DNA from: a virus
Taxonomy: Duplodnaviria; Heunggongvirae; Uroviricota; Caudoviricetes
IMG/VR virus record: IMGVR_UViG_2802429222_000003
Reading direction: 5' to 3' (one strand)
DNA length: 49,914 bases
In this document: in pieces, positions 26,388 to 35,799 of the stretch
Layout: each line of letters opens with the position of its first letter
Position numbering within the stretch: the stretch's first letter is position 1
Position numbers and translations under genes: made by a program
Notes under the pieces: model-generated
The model's database searches: none
What the model saw: only the letters and a program-made list of their open reading frames with translations
What the model was told of the DNA's origin: nothing

Positions 26388-26621
26388 ATGTCAACGAAGA
26401 ACAGAACCCGCAGAACAACAACCCGCAACATCCGCTTTCCTAACCAAATGATTGAACAAATTAACATCGCTCTTGTTCAAAAAGGGTCCGGGAATTTCTC
26501 AGCCTGGGTCATTGAAGCCTGCCGCCGGAGACTGTGCTCAGAAAAAAGAGTTTCGCCTGAAGCAAACAAAGAAAAGAGTGACATTACTGAATTGCTCAGA
26601 AAACAGGTCAGACCAGATTGA
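26388..26621 (+). CDS. small basic protein with ribbon-helix-helix-like core (77 aa)
   Basis: RNIRFPNQMIEQINIALVQKGSGNFSAWVIEACRRRL resembles the RHH (CopG/Arc) pattern. Confidence 0.5.
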   Translation: MSTKNRTRRTTTRNIRFPNQMIEQINIALVQKGSGNFSAWVIEACRRRLCSEKRVSPEANKEKSDITELLRKQVRPD

Positions 26622-26663: not shown

Positions 26664-27089
26664 ATGGAAGGTACTACAATGGCTCAGGTTGCCATTTTTA
26701 AACAAATATTCGATAAAGTGCGAAATAATTTAAACTATCACTGGTTTTATTCTGAACTAAAACGTCACAATGTCTCACATTACATTTACTATTTAGCCAC
26801 AGAGAATATTCATCTTGTTCTTGAAAACGATAATACGGTTTTAATAAAAGGACAGGGTAAGGTTGTAAATGTAAGATTTTCAAAAAATAAATGCCTTATA
26901 GAAGCCACCTTAAAAGGATTCAAATCAGGAGAGTTATCATTTTACGAATACAGGAAAAATCTTGCTACAGCAGGGGTTTTCAGATGGATTACAAATATCC
27001 ACGAAAACAAAAGGTATTACTATACCTTTGATAATTCATTACTATTTACTGAGAACATTCAGAACACTACACAAATATTTCCGCACTAA
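26664..27089 (+). CDS. DUF1398-type protein, YbcV-like (141 aa)
   Basis: resembles recalled DLP12 YbcV ([12 protein letters not shown]...[10 protein letters not shown]...[13 protein letters not shown]); true start may be the internal Met at 26679. Confidence 0.6.
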
Positions 27090-27677
27090 ATCATAACGTC
27101 CGGTTTCTTCCGCGCCAGAACCGGACTCGCTGGCATGATGAAATATGTGTACCCGGTAACCCCGGTGTGCATCGTTTTTGATTATTCCCGCACACTCACG
27201 CAGAAGGAATTCCCCGTCGGGCTACGGTCTCTGTTAATACGGGAATACGGCGACGATACAGCGCATGATGTGTCAGGCTTGAATACCTTTATCCTTTAAA
27301 AGGGATATCAGTTAAGTTATCCCGTGTAGGGTATAAGCCATTATCAAAGCCACTCTGTAGGGAATGGCTTTTGTGATGGCATCACTTACTCTTTACGCTG
27401 CTATCCCACTCATCCCGGAATTTTGATGGGTTATTGAAACCTTCTGCTGACATAACAACTCCTTCAATGTTTGGCTGAAATTAGGATGTCTTTCCATCAG
27501 TCCGCCACCACAAAGAATCTTTTTTGCCATAAGGCAGGAGGTTCATCTTTCAGTGGCTGCCGGTGTTATTTCTCCACTTACTGGCTTGGGTTGTTTCGTG
27601 GTACTGCCGTTAACTGGTGGCCCAGAATAAATTCCGGTTTCATTATCAAGCCCACCCGTAAATGGGCTTTGTAATGG

Positions 27678-27953
27678 CTACTTCACTTTTGCTTTTGCTT
27701 TTGCTTTTGCTTCCGCTCGCTTACGCCGGCGCTCTTCTTTCCTCTCGGCTTTTGCCATGTCCATGAATGCCTGCATGATCGAGTTCCGCATCATGTAGCT
27801 AACAAAGTGATGATTGACACAGCCGTTGAGGCGCAGCTGCTCGCCAAACTCATCCACCGAGGCCAATGCTTCCATCATGCCCTTCTCGCCTTTCATGAAC
27901 TCTGAGAAGTCGCGCCCCGCTCTGGAGGCGCATTCAATAACCCGATCACTCAT
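27678..27953 (-). CDS. hypothetical protein with basic (AK)n C-terminal tail (91 aa)
   Basis: ATGA overlap with the upstream KilA-N gene; tail encoded by a perfect hexamer repeat. Confidence 0.5.
   Translation of the reverse strand: MSDRVIECASRAGRDFSEFMKGEKGMMEALASVDEFGEQLRLNGCVNHHFVSYMMRNSIMQAFMDMAKAERKEERRRKRAEAKAKAKAKVK
27686..27709. repeat. perfect tandem hexanucleotide repeat CTTTTG x4 (CAAAAG on the coding strand)
   Basis: read directly at 27686..27709. Confidence 0.9.
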
Positions 27954-28447
27954 CCCGGAAGCCCGGGGATCGTAATCTGCAGCTGGTTAGCCAGGGAGTT
28001 AATCTCAGCGACCAACACTGGCTTCGTATAGCGCCATGCTGCCAGCCCTTGTCCGCAGAAGCTCGCCATGTCTTTCTTCTGGTCAAACTCATGACATTTC
28101 ATGTTGAGCTGCGCACTTAAGCTGTTGCGATGCTGAAGTTCTCCGGTGAAGTAGTCATCGAGGACTTTATAGGCCGCGTACTTGAACCCGGGGTTTAACC
28201 AAGCCGCATAATCGTAAGCAACAAACTTCCCGCCATATGTTCCACCGTGTACACCGCGCTCAGTAAAAACCACAGATTCGTGGTTTTTCTCCAGCTCGGC
28301 TAAGAACTCTTTGGTCTGCTTGTTTCGCAGGTAGTGGTAAGGCGATTCAGATTCACTTTTACCACTGGCTTTCCACATATCAGTGAGGCAGATCATGCCA
28401 TCTTCACCGATACGAATTGGTTGATTGAAGAGGGTTAATGATTTCAT
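27950..28447 (-). CDS. KilA-N domain protein (165 aa)
   Basis: N-terminal pattern IRIGEDGMICLTDMWKASG....YHYLRNKQTKEFLAEL typical of KilA-N/antirepressor N-domains. Confidence 0.6.
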   Translation of the reverse strand: MKSLTLFNQPIRIGEDGMICLTDMWKASGKSESESPYHYLRNKQTKEFLAELEKNHESVVFTERGVHGGTYGGKFVAYDYAAWLNPGFKYAAYKVLDDYFTGELQHRNSLSAQLNMKCHEFDQKKDMASFCGQGLAAWRYTKPVLVAEINSLANQLQITIPGLPG

Positions 28448-28562
28448 AGCGTGTACCTACTCTTTGAAATGAACCTTTGCCGCACAGGAAACCAGCCCAC
28501 CGAGGCTCGCCAGCACTAACTGGTATCCTCAAAGGCCCATTCCAAAGGGGCAGGTTCGGTGT

Positions 28563-28619
28563 AAAAAACATGCGTTGCGGTACGCATTTATTGCAAAAAG
28601 CCCCGCATCGCGAGGCTCA
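28563..28619 (-). terminator. two candidate intrinsic terminators after Rz (hairpin 28570..28587 with T-tract; hairpin 28601..28619 with T-tract)
   Basis: minus-strand ATGCGT-ACCGCA-ACGCAT followed by GTTTTTT; GCCTCGCGATGCGGGGC followed by TTTTT. Confidence 0.5.
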
Positions 28620-28648
28620 TTAAATGGACTTTGTGATTTGCAAAAAAA

Positions 28649-29107
28649 TTATTTCAGGCATTGCGTCCTGATGTATTCCTGCAGGTAGTTAACCTGCGCG
28701 GTTATCTTGTCGATTCCACTTCGGAGACGGTAATAATTGAGTTCAGCATCTGCTGTAAGTCCTGGGCTTTCTCCATCGCCCATGCCGCTGGCTCCGGTCG
28801 TTGACTTTGCACAGGTGGCGGCGACTTGCAGGCGCTTACGCCCAGCAGAAACATCAGCACGGAGACTTTCGATAGTCGCGTTAGCATCAGCAAGCTCCTT
28901 TGTGTATCTTGCGTCGAGTTCTGCTACATCACGTTGACGCTTCCGCATGTCAGCGATGGTGGCGTTCGCCTTCTCCAGTTCACTGGCCTTGTTATCGCGC
29001 TGCTCTTTGTAGGCGATTGCGTTATCACGGTAATGATTAACAGCCAATGACAGGCAGACGATGATGCAGATAACCAGAGCGGAGATAATCGCGGTTACTC
29101 TGTTCAT
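28649..29107 (-). CDS. Rz: spanin inner-membrane subunit Rz (152 aa)
   Basis: ATGA overlap with endolysin stop; N-terminal transmembrane segment, coiled-coil-like remainder; Rz1 embedded in +1 frame. Confidence 0.85.
28702..28893 (-). CDS. Rz1: spanin outer-membrane lipoprotein Rz1 (embedded in Rz)
   Basis: signal peptide with lipobox-like VSAC followed by a Pro-rich stretch, entirely inside Rz in another frame. Confidence 0.75.
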
Positions 29108-29601
29108 TGCTGACCCCACAAACAGATTTCACGCTCAATCTCACGACGAGTCATGAGACCTTTCCATTGCTTACCGCCAGCATATGTCCAGCGACGTAGC
29201 TGATCACATGTGCCTTTGATATCGCCCTGGTTTATTTTGCGAAGAAGCGTCGATGTTCTGAAATTGCCAGCGCCCACGTTGTAAACGAACGAGTAAAGAG
29301 CGCCGCGCATTGTTTCCGGTATATCAACTTTTATGTACGGGTTAATTTGTCTGGCGACCGTGGCAAGGTCTTTATTCAGGAGGGCTTTGCATTCTGCTTT
29401 GGTATACGTTTTACCGAGCATGATGTCTTTTCCTGTATGCCCGTGACATACAGTCCATACACCAACAATATCTTTGTATGGTATGTAGCTGACACCTTCC
29501 AGACCATCGTTACCACTTGGGCCAGTGATTAACACTGATGCTATAGCAATTGCTCCGCCACCAATAGCAGCAGCAACGACTTTTCGTAATGATGGAGGCA
29601 T
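29104..29601 (-). CDS. R: SAR endolysin (phage 21 R-type lysozyme, 165 aa)
   Basis: Gly/Ala-rich N-terminal signal-anchor-release segment followed by a T4-lysozyme-like catalytic region; resembles recalled R21 / DLP12 RrrD. Confidence 0.9.
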
Positions 29602-30004: not shown

Positions 30005-30745
30005 TTACATCATGTCTTTTTCTAAAAAAAATCTTGATGAATATTGATGGGGAGGAACACCAAAATATCTTCTGAAAACACTTACAAAATATGACGTGTT
30101 TTCATAACCGCATATCTCAGCAACTTTTCCAACAGAATATAAATTGTAGCTTAATAACCTTTCCGCCATCACCATTCGCTCTTCAAGAATTAATTTACTA
30201 AATGATAAGCCTTCGTGCTTTAATTTTCTTTTTAACAGACTTTCACTCAGATACAGTCTTGAAGATATATCACAAAGTCTCCATGTTGCAGATATATCCG
30301 TGTGAATAATAGCCTTAACTTTACTTCCTAAACTATTAAGACATCCAAATAAAAAACTTTGCACTATTTTCTCTGAAGATAAGATAGCAAGACATGCAAG
30401 TGATATTTGATTTCTAACAAAATCCACAGTTCTGCCATCACAATTCAAGCATGCAATCAAGTTCTTTAACAATGAAAAATCTTCACATTCCACCATCAAG
30501 TATGCCGGATAAAACCTTCTTACAGAAAAAGGTGAGAGTGTGTTGCTTTTAAAGAAATCATTAACTGTTTTCTCTTCAACATCTACGATCATTACATGAT
30601 CTATATTTGATGAAAAAAAATCTTTTAAATTGTAATCAATGAGAACAGCACTTCCTTTTTTAAACAAAATATCTTCTTTACCAATTCGGACATCAAACGA
30701 GTTCAACACCAAAATGATAGAACATATGTATGGCATATTATCCAC
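30005..30745 (-). CDS. AraC-family regulator, AppY/EnvY-like paralog (246 aa)
   Basis: about 40-45% identity by eye to AppY at 3118..3867 across both the N-terminal and HTH regions. Confidence 0.8.
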   Translation of the reverse strand: MDNMPYICSIILVLNSFDVRIGKEDILFKKGSAVLIDYNLKDFFSSNIDHVMIVDVEEKTVNDFFKSNTLSPFSVRRFYPAYLMVECEDFSLLKNLIACLNCDGRTVDFVRNQISLACLAILSSEKIVQSFLFGCLNSLGSKVKAIIHTDISATWRLCDISSRLYLSESLLKRKLKHEGLSFSKLILEERMVMAERLLSYNLYSVGKVAEICGYENTSYFVSVFRRYFGVPPHQYSSRFFLEKDMM

Positions 30746-31087: not shown

Positions 31088-32047
31088 TTAATTTACCATC
31101 AGTCTTAGAGCCAGTTCGTCCGGATAGGGATCGAAGTAATTCTGTGTAAGCAAGTAATCATTAGGATACTCACCCAGATAATGCTTCAGCAGAGTCAACG
31201 GCGCAAGAAGAGGTAATGTGCCAGAACGATAGTTAAGTATAACCTCGCTCAACTCTTTACGCTGGCGTGTACTTAAGTAGTTACTAAAATACCCCTGTAT
31301 ATGCATCAGCACATTCGTGTGATTTTTACGTGATGCAGGTTTTCTGAGAATCGCCATCAGCTTATCACGATACACCTCAAAGTATGATTCAAGATCCGCC
31401 CACTCGTGTATTGCAGCCACAAATGGTCCCATATCTTTATAGCCTGTCTGACTATGCGCCAACAACTGAAGCTTATAACGACTATGAAAAGCCAATAACT
31501 CTCTTCTTGATAATTTCTCCTTGTAAAGGTGATTGAGCTCATGCAAAGCAAAAACTCTTTCAACAAAATTCTCACGAAGCACTGGATCATGTAATCGCCC
31601 ATCCTCTTCAACCGGTAGCCAGGAAAACTTTTCCATCAAAGTGCTCGTAAATAGTCCCACTCCATCTTTACGACCTCGATTACCATTTTCATCATAGACA
31701 CGCACGCGCTCCATGCCACAGCTGGGAGATTTAGCACAAACCACAAACCCCGATACATCCTTTAATTTGTCCATATAAGAACGACTAAACTCTGTCATTC
31801 TCTCTGTCACATCCTCATTCTGGTCGTGGCTGAAACACATCCGTATATTTCCTTGCGTCGAGCGCACAAGACGTAGAGCAGGACGCGGAACTGGCAGCCC
31901 TATAGCCATTTCCGGACATACTGGTCTGAATGTTACCCATTCCACTAATTTGTCCATTAAAAAGTCAGCTCTTTTGTGACCACCATCAAAACGAACAGCA
32001 GAACCGGCCAAACAACCGCTGATTCCAATCACAGGTTTTTTTATCAT
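31088..32047 (-). CDS. DUF523 (TudS-like) / DUF1722 (YbgA-like) fusion protein (319 aa)
   Basis: motifs GISGCLAG..VRFDGGHK, VCPEMAIGLPVPR, KSPSCG consistent with the Cys-containing DUF523 core; C-terminal half resembles YbgA-type domain. Confidence 0.6.
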   Translation of the reverse strand: MIKKPVIGISGCLAGSAVRFDGGHKRADFLMDKLVEWVTFRPVCPEMAIGLPVPRPALRLVRSTQGNIRMCFSHDQNEDVTERMTEFSRSYMDKLKDVSGFVVCAKSPSCGMERVRVYDENGNRGRKDGVGLFTSTLMEKFSWLPVEEDGRLHDPVLRENFVERVFALHELNHLYKEKLSRRELLAFHSRYKLQLLAHSQTGYKDMGPFVAAIHEWADLESYFEVYRDKLMAILRKPASRKNHTNVLMHIQGYFSNYLSTRQRKELSEVILNYRSGTLPLLAPLTLLKHYLGEYPNDYLLTQNYFDPYPDELALRLMVN

Positions 32048-32239: not shown

Positions 32240-32764
32240 ATGAAGTTATGGCCTGTGTTGACTGGCATTGCGCTCTCTTTCACTCTTATAGCATGTAAGG
32301 CCCCGACACCACCTAAAGGTGTGCAGCCGATTACAAATTTTGACGCCAACCGCTACCTCGGAAAATGGTATGAAATAGCTCGCCTCGAGAACCGGTTCGA
32401 ACGTGGTCTGGAACAGGTCAGCGCTACTTATGGAAAACGGAACGACGGAGGGATTCGTGTACTTAACCGTGGATACGATCCAACGAAAAATAAATGGAGC
32501 GAGAGCGAAGGTAAAGCATACTTTACTGGAGATACTAAAACTGCAGCGTTGAAGGTTTCGTTTTTTGGCCCCTTCTATGGTGGCTATAATGTAATCAAAC
32601 TGGATGATGAGTATAAGTATGCTCTTGTCAGTGGTCCGAACAGAGAATACCTATGGATTCTGGCAAGGACCTCAACTATTCCAGATAAAGTAAAAGCAGA
32701 CTATGTGCGAACCGCTCAAAAGTTGGGATTCAATGTCAATGAATTATTATGGGTTAAACAATAA
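32240..32764 (+). CDS. bacterial lipocalin (Blc-like) lipoprotein (174 aa)
   Basis: signal peptide with lipobox LIAC; roughly 60% identity by eye to recalled E. coli Blc (NFDANRYLGKWYEIARLENRFERGLE...KVSFFGPFYGGYNVI...YLWILARTSTI). Confidence 0.85.
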   Translation: MKLWPVLTGIALSFTLIACKAPTPPKGVQPITNFDANRYLGKWYEIARLENRFERGLEQVSATYGKRNDGGIRVLNRGYDPTKNKWSESEGKAYFTGDTKTAALKVSFFGPFYGGYNVIKLDDEYKYALVSGPNREYLWILARTSTIPDKVKADYVRTAQKLGFNVNELLWVKQ

Positions 32765-35001: not shown

Positions 35002-35799
35002 TTACTCTCTGGAAGCTTTTCTTATCTCTCTTGGTGTTATATTAAAACGATTATGAAATCTTTCAGTAAAACGAGAAGGACACTTATAACCATTTTCTCT
35101 GGCAATCTCGCTTATAGGTTTTACCGTCGTTTGTATAGCAGACAACGCATTATTTAACCTCACATCGTCCAGTATACTTTGGAAACTTACCCCCTCGCTT
35201 GCTAGACGGCGATGTAATGTAGAAACAGAAATGTAGAGATATCGAGCAACCTTGTTTGCTGTCCATTTTGTGCCGGGTTCGGATAGCAGCAGGTTATAAC
35301 AACGACTTATCAATGATTGTTTACTATATGATAAAAGTAAATGATTAACATGATTCACTCCTAACGAAAGTAGAACGCCCATTGCTAAGTGCTCCTGAAT
35401 TTTAGTTGAGAAGCCTCGGGAAACAGATGTTTTTAGTTGCTCCCAACAATATATTAACTCAGGATTCTGAGGTAAAAAGAAACTTGTTTTGTTACGTATT
35501 TGATCAGTTACCGTATAAAGTTTTTGGAAACTCTCAATTAAATCAATGGGTAAGTAAAGCATTTCTGCAAGATAAAGCCCTGCTTCAGGATAATTCTCAA
35601 TATAAAATTCATAACCACAAGGAAATAATATTATTTGATTATTATCAACAGTTAAAGTATGCGTCTCCCAATTGATAACTTTCTTTCCCTGACGGATACG
35701 ACACAAAGCTGGCATAAGAGGCTTAACCCTATGAATCTCATGATGTTTATGCATCCGTATTTCTTCGATCTTTAAGTTAGTCTTACCTCTTGCCAGCAT
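35002..35799 (-). CDS. AraC-family regulator, YbcM-like (265 aa)
   Basis: C-terminal AraC HTH; AT-rich cargo block. Confidence 0.8.

Follow-up and report, generated by a model that had tools for sequence, protein, structure and literature searches.

The window analyzed here is a 49,914-nt stretch of DNA from a tailed virus of the Caudoviricetes (IMG/VR record IMGVR_UViG_2802429222_000003). On its minus strand, between the spanin genes Rz/Rz1 and the cohesive-end site cos, the window carries two coupled genes, one for a protein with KilA-N and ORF11CD3 domains and one for a small helical protein, both preceded by a conserved, structured leader. This locus is probably a mobile accessory cassette of the late operon, lodged between the spanin and packaging genes, in the position of lambdoid phages herein referred to as the rha slot. 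The cassette would consist of the conserved leader, a Bro-network gene (KilA-N + ORF11CD3), a coupled gene for a small basic-tailed protein, and a conserved non-coding tail. The leader represents a well-supported and undescribed family of cis-acting RNAs of about 170 nt. Its conservation and covariation were established along with the anatomy, domain content, and distribution of the locus, and unrelated genes of the Bro network share one leader. The two genes themselves are routine, already known, and annotated in hundreds of phage and E. coli records, and the window holds only another copy of them. The leader and the two genes are laid out as follows (SD, Shine-Dalgarno sequence; aa, amino acids).

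28618-28595, minus strand: T1, a terminator-like hairpin, GAGCCUCGCGAUGCGGGGC followed by UUUUU (RNAfold); first element of the conserved leader
28587-28563, minus strand: H2, the second hairpin, AUGCGUACCGCAACGCAU followed by GUUUUUU (pattern scan, RNAfold)
28562-28448, minus strand: structured leader after H2 (covariance model, covariation, minimum-free-energy fold)
28561-28556, minus strand: leader segment a, CACCGA, pairing with a'
28554-28550, minus strand: leader anti-SD, CCUGC, pairing with the SD
28543-28530, minus strand: leader 5' arm, GGAAUGGGCCUUUG, pairing with the 3' arm
28524-28520, minus strand: leader segment X, ACCAG, pairing with Y' or Y
28513-28510, minus strand: leader segment Y, CUGG
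28503-28498, minus strand: leader segment a', UCGGUG
28495-28491, minus strand: leader segment Y', CUGGU
28479-28466, minus strand: leader 3' arm, CAAAGGUUCAUUUC
28460-28456, minus strand: leader SD, GUAGG
28447-27950, minus strand: KilA-N + ORF11CD3 gene (HK620 hkbK type), 165 aa, ATG start
27953-27678, minus strand: gene for the small helical protein with a basic (AK)n tail (HK620 hkbL type, phrog_875), 91 aa, ATG start

A first-pass annotation of this DNA had described two coupled open reading frames (ORFs) with an ATGA overlap, encoding a KilA-N protein and a small basic protein, between Rz/Rz1 and cos and behind two hairpins with T-tracts. All of these elements were recovered. The stop codon of the KilA-N ORF and the start codon of the 91-aa ORF overlap as ATGA (sequence GGGATGAGTGA), the hairpins are T1 and H2, the KilA-N domain was identified by a Pfam HMM, and the isoelectric point (pI) of the small protein is raised by its tail. 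The description of the pair as an accessory module also holds, as it is non-structural and is located between Rz and cos, an interval used for variable cargo in lambdoid phages.

The gap between Rz and the start codon was aligned for the window, HK97, mEp234, HK620, phiEt88, and RAH1. The whole upstream region is conserved across these six loci although the downstream genes differ. The order of elements in the family, from 5' to 3', is T1 (GCCUCGC..GCGGGGC UUUUU), H2 (GCGCA..UGCGC), a, anti-SD (CUUUU or CCUUU), 5' arm, X, Y, a', Y', 3' arm, and SD, with the ATG following after 6-8 nt. In a BLAST search with the HK97 leader, the leader was found before genes for KilA-N + P63C proteins in HK97-like phages, SPN3UB, Oslo, and KP12, before KilA-N + ORF11CD3 genes in RAH1 and phiEt88, before an ANT/KilAC 'antirepressor' gene in Hafnia phage Pocitis76, and before a Rha-family gene in Erwinia phage Midgardsormr38. 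A 14-mer scan of IMG/VR gave 120 matches; since most of them (80) were chance matches, the set was filtered by BLAST, and 40 proved to be true leaders. The ORFs following these 40 leaders encode 17 KilA-N + P63C proteins, 17 KilA-N + ORF11CD3 proteins (about 96% identical to the window protein), 3 Rha-like proteins, 1 ANT protein, and 2 other KilA-N proteins. The leader also travels with its gene into tail-gene clusters (RAH1, SPN3UB). The leaders of phi80 rha and HK620 hkbK are identical over the approximately 80 nt read before the ATG and stand before different genes; thus, the start codon marks the point at which the common leader gives way to the variable gene. No match was found in Rfam 15 (cmscan, E <= 1) for the leaders of the window, HK97, HK620, SPN3UB, Pocitis76, or Midgardsormr38.

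Pairing of X with Y' completes a long hairpin, and pairing of X with the nearer Y gives a short hairpin, P3. Additionally, a helix between segments a and a' in the apical region forms a pseudoknot with the long hairpin. In the window, the helices GGAAUGGGCCUUUG/CAAAGGUUCAUUUC, ACCAG/CUGGU, and CACCGA/UCGGUG were verified by hand, and the minimum-free-energy fold is the long hairpin (RNAfold, z -2.99), burying GUAGG. The long hairpin is about 100 nt in length, has a probable pseudoknot, and would bury the ribosome-binding site. Pairing was counted in 21 distinct leaders. For the long hairpin with the pseudoknot, 92.7% of cells are paired, vs. 32-49% with the partners slid by 1-3 columns, and 42 cells are changed on both sides, vs. 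15.7 ± 3.8 in shuffles (0/500). The alternative structure, a-a' with P3, reaches 93.1% paired cells, vs. 23-50%. Column 69, in X, covaries with both partners, as G-C/A-U with Y and as G-U/A-U with Y'. The complementarity of a and a' is kept with different sequences in each leader type: CCAAGAG/CUCUUGG, CGAGAG/CUCUCG, and CACCGA/UCGGUG.

A covariance model built without the window has its top match in the window at 28589-28445, covering model positions 1-138 of 138 (23.7 bits, E 2.7e-4), and the next best match scores 12.6 bits. The model also matches P22 upstream of rha (L138 39506-39646, 26.7 bits) and the leader of phi80 rha (L017 2545-2677, 88 bits). The window leader is of the P22-rha type, and from ACCGAACC through CAUUUCAAAGA it is near-identical to that of P22. 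In phi80, the leader occurs a second time as a shorter copy (L017 4139-4254, 41.9 bits) before gp49, just before cos; gp49 is a 729-nt ORF, equal in length to HK97 gp73. This copy is without the P3/Y segment and keeps a-a' (AGAAAG/CUUUC), which indicates that the core fold is the long hairpin with the pseudoknot and that P3 is an optional alternative. In the model alignment of 28 distinct sequences, 94.9% of cells pair, and 20 of the 31 pairs show a compensatory change. The count of further pair types, which is the measure least inflated by relatedness, is 38, vs. 31.3 ± 1.8 in shuffles (0/500).

Many G-U pairs are present, and on the sense strand only, which favors an RNA structure over a DNA palindrome, because on the opposite strand many conserved G-U pairs would turn into A-C mismatches. 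Conservation at the level of DNA, either as a recombination 'linker' or as a protein-binding palindrome (a site for IHF or a regulator), would nevertheless agree with the module junctions exactly at the start codon, with the IHF dependence of the phi80 Rha phenotype, and with the ATCAA-like motifs between H2 and the hairpin. Set against this, the helices are kept by compensatory changes while the sequence varies among six leader types, and an RNA of exactly this extent has been detected (PMC13397905). By inspection, the full IHF consensus WATCAANNNNTTR is not conserved in the leader, where only partial ATCAA matches occur. A DNA-level origin of the conservation is extremely improbable on these grounds.

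The detected RNA is P22F, an 89-nt RNA of phage P22 that is abundant in infected cells and vesicles, was checked by RT-PCR (reverse transcription PCR), and gave zero reads in uninfected samples; it was listed with 'no known function' in a 2026 paper, and its 3' end lies 6 nt before the rha start codon (PMC13397905). Window positions 28541-28461 are identical to P22F (81/81), whereas the last approximately 8 nt, the SD region, differ. It follows from this identity that a close relative produces the leader hairpin as a stable RNA. Another RNA from the same study, P22G, has 91.5% identity over 142 nt, a part of its length, with window positions 27623-27485. P22F and P22G were reported as read clusters only, and the family-wide fold, the covariation, and the link to the Bro network are not in that paper (PMC13397905). 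Papers on the small RNAs AsxR/AgvB and Pas of enterohemorrhagic E. coli prophages contained no phage late-gene terms and gave no lead.

Among the classic substrates of RNase III in lambdoid phages are long imperfect hairpins, such as those of the lambda N leader and sib. The upstream element could accordingly be primarily a trans-acting small RNA of the P22F kind, or an element for RNase processing or stability, with its position before Bro genes being incidental. The RT-PCR-confirmed 89-nt species in P22-infected cells and vesicles is consistent with such a role, and so is the second stable species, P22G, which maps to the conserved region after the cassette. However, the element in every case runs straight into the SD and ATG of a gene of the Bro network, and the start codon marks the recombination junction. 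The element also lacks a 3' terminator of its own, and both the 3' arm and the anti-SD segment are paired with the ribosome-binding region. A primarily trans-acting or processing role is judged unlikely, and it is partly compatible with the proposed translational gating of a late-operon cassette.

The rha genes of phi80 and P22 (orf201) are located directly after Rz/Rz1, behind a leader of the window's family, and the window cassette has the same setting: after Rz/Rz1, in the orientation of the late operon, and with the conserved leader in front. The rha gene of P22 has been described as a late-operon gene (PMC4936722), and the late operon of P22 has been described with a single promoter (PMC8022706). 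The start codons annotated in GenBank for rha (P22 39575; phi80 L017 position 2639) fall inside the conserved leader. The covariance model together with the SD puts the ATG at P22 39644 and phi80 L017:2675, and the position predicted for P22 agrees with the start codon used in PMC13397905. These starts would give lengths of about 178 aa for P22 'orf201' and about 172 aa for phi80 Rha. The phi80 protein is the only characterized occupant of the slot; its record is annotated 'DNA synthesis inhibition in IHF- hosts' (see also PMC4936722), and this annotation does not say antirepressor. The N-terminal DNA-binding domain of phi80 Rha is Phage_pRha (PF09669, E 7.7e-31), in contrast to KilA-N in the window protein, where no Phage_pRha was found with Pfam. 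Growth inhibition in IHF- hosts is the phenotype described for Rha.

The T1 and H2 hairpins are the 5' part of the conserved structured leader, not simple insulators. Both have the form of an intrinsic terminator, a GC-rich hairpin followed by a U-run. The core of T1 (GCCUCG, CGGGGCUUUUU) is invariant in the 6 of 6 leaders of alignment A4, and T1 is annotated 'terminator' in the records of phi80, mEpX1, HK75, and HK106. In most relatives, H2 is GCGCA..UGCGC without a U-run. The helix of the window H2 is kept with changes on both sides, and, unlike H2 in most relatives, it bears a U-run; for this reason, two terminators had been seen in the first-pass annotation. The pattern scan gave 5 terminator-like sites in 2.2 kb, vs. 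2.2 ± 1.2 in shuffles; it missed the hairpin at 28618, which is formed by RNAfold. One further terminator-like pattern overlaps the stop codon of Rz:

28671-28654, minus strand: weak third hairpin, then AAAUAAUUUUUUU (terminator-like pattern scan, RNAfold)

From the same two hairpins, the first-pass annotation had deduced that the pair probably has its own promoter. This deduction was not supported: no sigma-70-like site was found on the minus strand at 27000-29200 by a simple consensus scan, the pair is co-oriented with Q, the lysis genes, and terminase, the hairpins belong to the leader, and the equivalent rha genes of phi80 and P22 occupy the same slot, the latter in a late operon with a single promoter. 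A related proposal makes the pair an anti-repressor module that has its own promoter, is insulated by two terminators, and inactivates resident or heterologous CI-type repressors. Proteins of the Bro network are often annotated in this way, for example RAH1 ORF56 ('antirepressor') and P22 rha ('anti-repressor', NC_002371). Furthermore, the leader with its KilA-N gene adjoins an immI-like arc/ant region in SPN3UB and Oslo, the cassette moves along with its upstream terminator in a moron-like manner, and a plausible promoter, TTCACA-16-TATTAA, is seen by eye in the HK620 and phi80 leaders. Besides the result of the promoter scan, this proposal is opposed by the conservation of an SD-sequestering leader before the gene, by the case of phi80 Rha, annotated as an inhibitor of DNA synthesis when the host is IHF-, and by timing, as late expression cannot help the own prophage to induce. 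The domains specific to antirepressors, namely ANT (PF03374)/KilAC, AntA, and P22_AR_N/C, were not found in the KilA-N protein (Pfam, E <= 0.01), and the 'anti-repressor' families of PHROGs match it weakly (E 6e-4 and 2.4e-3). On these grounds, an anti-repressor module of this kind is improbable.

The 165-aa protein contains two Pfam domains. KilA-N (PF04383; E 1.3e-15, 57.6 bits vs. a gathering cut-off of 23.8) covers residues 9-101, corresponding to profile positions 8-106 of 107, and ORF11CD3 (PF10549; E 2.4e-13, 50.5 bits vs. a cut-off of 25) covers residues 109-161. In PHROGs, the protein matches phrog_129 'transcriptional regulator', and its ORF11CD3 region matches the 'Rha-like transcriptional regulator' family phrog_518. 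Some Rha-family proteins were also among the tblastn matches of this region. The AlphaFold2 (AF2) model (pLDDT 84.5) consists of an alpha/beta domain at residues 1-85, predicted as beta-beta-alpha... in topology (pLDDT ~85), and a helical hairpin at residues 86-156, which is the ORF11CD3 part. In a Foldseek search of this model against the PDB, Mbp1, an APSES relative of KilA-N, ranked second, not significantly (E 0.79). A sequence search against PDB chains gave nothing meaningful for either cassette protein, an NCBIfam search of the cassette proteins gave no real match, and no functional study of either gene was found in the literature on ORF11CD3, hkbK, and PhiR49. The DNA-binding domains of P1 KilA, BstA, and the APSES proteins (Mbp1) share the Pfam KilA-N domain with the window protein, whereas their C-terminal domains, sizes, and genomic contexts are unlike those of the window protein. 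The KilA-N protein is most likely a late-expressed, translation-gated DNA-binding regulator of the Bro family.

The N-terminal KilA-N domain of BstA (PMC8585504) suggests another function, a lysogen-expressed, BstA-like defense or superinfection exclusion, in which the KilA-N protein would bind incoming replicating DNA and abort the infection, with the small protein as a modulator. The position of the pair is a known cargo spot, and under certain conditions phi80 Rha is a block to the synthesis of phage DNA, both of which are compatible with defense. A weak PADLOC match to the candidate system PDC-S22 (E 1.2e-8) points in the same direction, but it involves only about 30 residues of the KilA-N core, and no BstA model matched the protein in PADLOC. 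BstA is a protein of about 300 aa. The window protein, with its 165 aa and its ORF11CD3 C-terminus, is unlike BstA, and its gene lies within the late operon behind terminators, with no promoter detected. The same cassette is also present in transcripts of the P22 virulent cycle, as P22F was found in infected cells (PMC13397905). A BstA-like function is very unlikely in view of these differences. A match to QatB, also returned by PADLOC, was spurious.

The 91-aa protein belongs over its full length to phrog_875, a family of 'unknown function' (E 3.9e-54), and contains no Pfam domain. Its pI is 9.6 overall; the last 23 residues (...KEERRRKRAEAKAKAKAKVK) have a pI of 11.1, vs. 5.5 for the acidic remainder. 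The AF2 model (pLDDT 91.3) has three helices, the last of which is long and bears the basic tail, and in Foldseek it resembles only generic or designed helical bundles. The tail is encoded by a tandem repeat:

27686-27712, no strand assigned: CTTTTG x4.5, an in-frame hexanucleotide repeat encoding the (AK)n tail (TRF)

Homologues of the small protein are 85, 87, or 91 aa long owing to different tails (alignment A1), suggesting a slippage polymorphism of the CTTTTG repeat. The family is narrow, with 138 clusters at 90% identity, all from Enterobacterales, and 21 representatives among 1.84e9 proteins. Its invariant motifs are GRDFSxFxxGEK and FxxQLxxxGCxN. Residues C8, C45, H48, and H49 are invariant or nearly so across the family, and a metal (zinc) site at these positions is conceivable from the sequence. 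In two remote relatives (P0190 and P0192; E 8e-5 and 8e-4), the N-terminal ~70 residues keep the family motifs and are fused to a C-terminal T5orf172/MUG113 (GIY-YIG-like) domain. T5orf172 is reportedly a partner of Bro-N and KilA-N. By this fusion, the small protein would be a piece of the Bro shuffling network. The small gene follows most KilA-N + ORF11CD3 genes and many KilA-N + P63C genes, e.g., HK97 gp73. It is absent in phiEt88, and no gene of the phrog_875 family was seen after the sampled Rha or ANT genes, so it is a frequent companion and not an obligatory one.

The pair matches hkbK/hkbL of HK620 and the corresponding genes of the Stx phages 1717 and 2851 ('kilA'), ECP1, and PhiR49_1 ('KilA-N-ORF11CD3'), with a DNA identity of 95-99.8%; in HK620, Stx2 phage 1717, Stx phage 2851, ECP1, and PhiR49_1, the gene order and the ATGA-type coupling are like those of the window. 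It was found in 1951 of 5426 complete E. coli genomes. The whole query is 99.8% identical to a prophage of avian pathogenic E. coli (APEC) IMT5155, where PGAP names the products 'KilA-N domain-containing protein' and 'hypothetical protein'. In HK620 and its like, the pair lies after Rz and before the packaging genes, as in the window, whereas the HK620 leader is of the phi80 type, unlike that of the window, and the similarity to the window ends 5 nt before the ATG. HK97 gp73 (KilA-N + P63C) has a slot and a leader family like those of the window. However, the KilA-N domains of gp73 and the window protein share 23% identity, and the C-terminal domain of gp73 is P63C, not ORF11CD3. The small protein of HK97-like phages is 95-97% identical to that of the window, and the HK97 gene itself (L004 2001-2234) is frameshifted after residue 54 and represents a decayed copy. 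In phages cdtI (L008 2378-2740) and phi458 (L009 2378-2740), an N-terminally truncated ORF11CD3 remnant lies directly after Rz, with neither the leader nor the small gene.

In all lineages examined except two groups, the cassette gene immediately follows the spanin genes and precedes the packaging genes. The exceptions are Klebsiella phage RAH1 and the Salmonella phages SPN3UB and Oslo, in which the unit of leader and KilA-N gene is inside the tail-gene cluster; at these loci, a coupled small gene is annotated in RAH1 only, in contrast to SPN3UB and Oslo. In SPN3UB (L011 2176-4178) and Oslo (L012 1665-3167), which are ES18-like, the leader with its KilA-N + P63C gene adjoins the immI-like arc/ant region, and the sar RNA was identified at this region in SPN3UB (Rfam, E 3.5e-7).

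The surroundings of the cassette in the window are as follows.

33312-32920, minus strand: late antiterminator Q (Pfam Phage_antitermQ, E 2.5e-51), about 4.5 kb upstream of the cassette
29816-29601, minus strand: holin, upstream of the cassette
29601-29104, minus strand: lysozyme, upstream of the cassette
29119-28649, minus strand: Rz (Pfam Phage_lysis, E 2.1e-39), the last lysis gene before the cassette
28893-28702, minus strand: Rz1, embedded in Rz
27670-27648, minus strand: 9-bp hairpin AAGCCCAUU-UACG-GGUGGGCUU, without a U-run, directly 3' of the stop codon of the small gene (RNAfold)
27623-27485, minus strand: conserved non-coding stretch 3' of the small gene, counterpart of the P22 small non-coding RNA 'P22G'
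26664-27089, plus strand: DUF1398 (ybcV-like) gene, between the cassette and cos
26388-26621, plus strand: DUF3950 (ynfO-like) gene, between the cassette and cos
26188-26177, minus strand: cosN, an exact match to the lambda cohesive-end sequence GGGCGGCGACCT

The holin, lysozyme, Rz, and Rz1 all have the expected Pfam domains, and 201 nt separate Rz from the KilA-N gene. Downstream of cosN are Nu1 and then the large terminase subunit; thus, one strand, the minus one, carries Q, the lysis genes, the cassette, and terminase. The cassette is not adjacent to cos, being separated from it by about 1.5 kb with the two opposite-strand genes and conserved non-coding DNA. In lambda, bor is a lipoprotein gene on the opposite strand that is expressed in the lysogen from its own promoter. 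Of the earlier assignment of the pair to the bor position, the part that stands is that both are variable cargo between Rz and cos. The orientation does not agree: the KilA-N pair runs in the direction of the late operon, and the opposite-strand DUF1398 and DUF3950 genes fit that of bor better.

Directly downstream of the small gene, the strong 9-bp hairpin is a candidate for a moron terminator, but the U-run is absent. In HK97 and HK620, conserved counterparts of the non-coding DNA at 27288-27355 and 27485-27623 likewise follow the small gene; relative to these phages, the window has an insertion of about 129 nt at 27356-27484. A 45-codon ORF at 27530-27393 (MAKKILCGGGLMERH...) begins within the conserved block and may match P22 orf25. 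A remnant of an HNH endonuclease 3' of the small gene, as in HK97-like phages, was sought by tblastn with gp74, and none was found. The PHROGs label of the DUF1398 gene, 'head protein', looks like an annotation artifact. Other cargo lies between Q and the holin: an AraC-type regulator (30005-30745, minus strand), a 2-thiouracil desulfurase + DUF1722 protein (31088-32047, minus strand), and a lipocalin (32240-32764, plus strand). A second AraC-type regulator, with an ExsA-like N-domain, is located in the nin region (35002-35799, minus strand).

A working model of the late-operon cassette can be drawn as follows. The cassette would have no promoter of its own, and read-through of the upstream terminators by Q-modified RNA polymerase during lytic growth would be the sole route of its transcription; in the lysogen, T1, and in the window also H2, would silence it. 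Translation of the KilA-N protein would be low or conditional because the 3' arm and the anti-SD pair with the ribosome-binding region, and through the ATGA overlap the small protein would be gated in the same way. A possible way to switch would be pairing of X with Y instead of Y', together with the a-a' pseudoknot. The hairpin may accumulate as a stable RNA of about 89 nt, as P22F does in P22. The KilA-N protein is predicted to bind DNA, with the helical-hairpin C-terminal domain serving for oligomerization or partner binding. By analogy with phi80 Rha, it would intervene late in DNA transactions, whether those of the phage, of the host, or of co-resident elements, and it may be harmful when over-expressed. 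The phi80 rha annotation suggests that products of this kind are harmful if mis-expressed, which would explain the elaborate gating.

Several points weigh against this model. The promoter scan looked for a simple consensus and may have missed a promoter that is weak or activator-dependent in the interval from T1 to the hairpin, and the TTCACA-16-TATTAA site seen by eye in HK620 and phi80 lies in just this interval. The structure was derived from the sequences on which it was tested, the 28-sequence alignment was fitted to the model, and only about six leader types are represented; furthermore, per-sequence shuffle tests do not single out the a-a' pseudoknot. The 3' end of P22F could mean a cleavage between the SD and the ATG or just a stable decay product. 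The hairpin may repress translation, activate it (e.g., after RNase processing), or merely stabilize the mRNA. For the two proteins, Foldseek found no match in the PDB at E <= 0.001 with either AF2 model.

The alternative X:Y and X:Y' pairings and the conserved unpaired nucleotides of the leader point, tentatively, to a further possibility. The leader might be a true switch, riboswitch-like or responsive to a factor or RNase, that gates potentially toxic Bro-network proteins in the late operons of temperate enterobacterial phages and supplies the cis element so far lacking for the Rha/IHF phenotype that phi80 and P22 have been known to show for 40 years; this is a doubtful but possible reading. 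In that case, a new family of cis-regulatory RNAs would be defined, serving a large set of uncharacterized phage proteins, the annotated starts of the classical P22 and phi80 rha genes would be corrected, and a concrete handle on Rha-type inhibition in IHF-deficient hosts would become available. The interest of the locus thus lies in its regulatory architecture, one covarying leader before KilA-N, Rha, and ANT genes, which spans phages of Escherichia, Salmonella, Klebsiella, Erwinia, and Hafnia and is without an Rfam entry. The proteins are found in Shiga-toxin phages and in roughly one sequenced E. coli in three; a contribution to the lytic cycle or to cross-talk between prophages, even if modest, would therefore be widely relevant.

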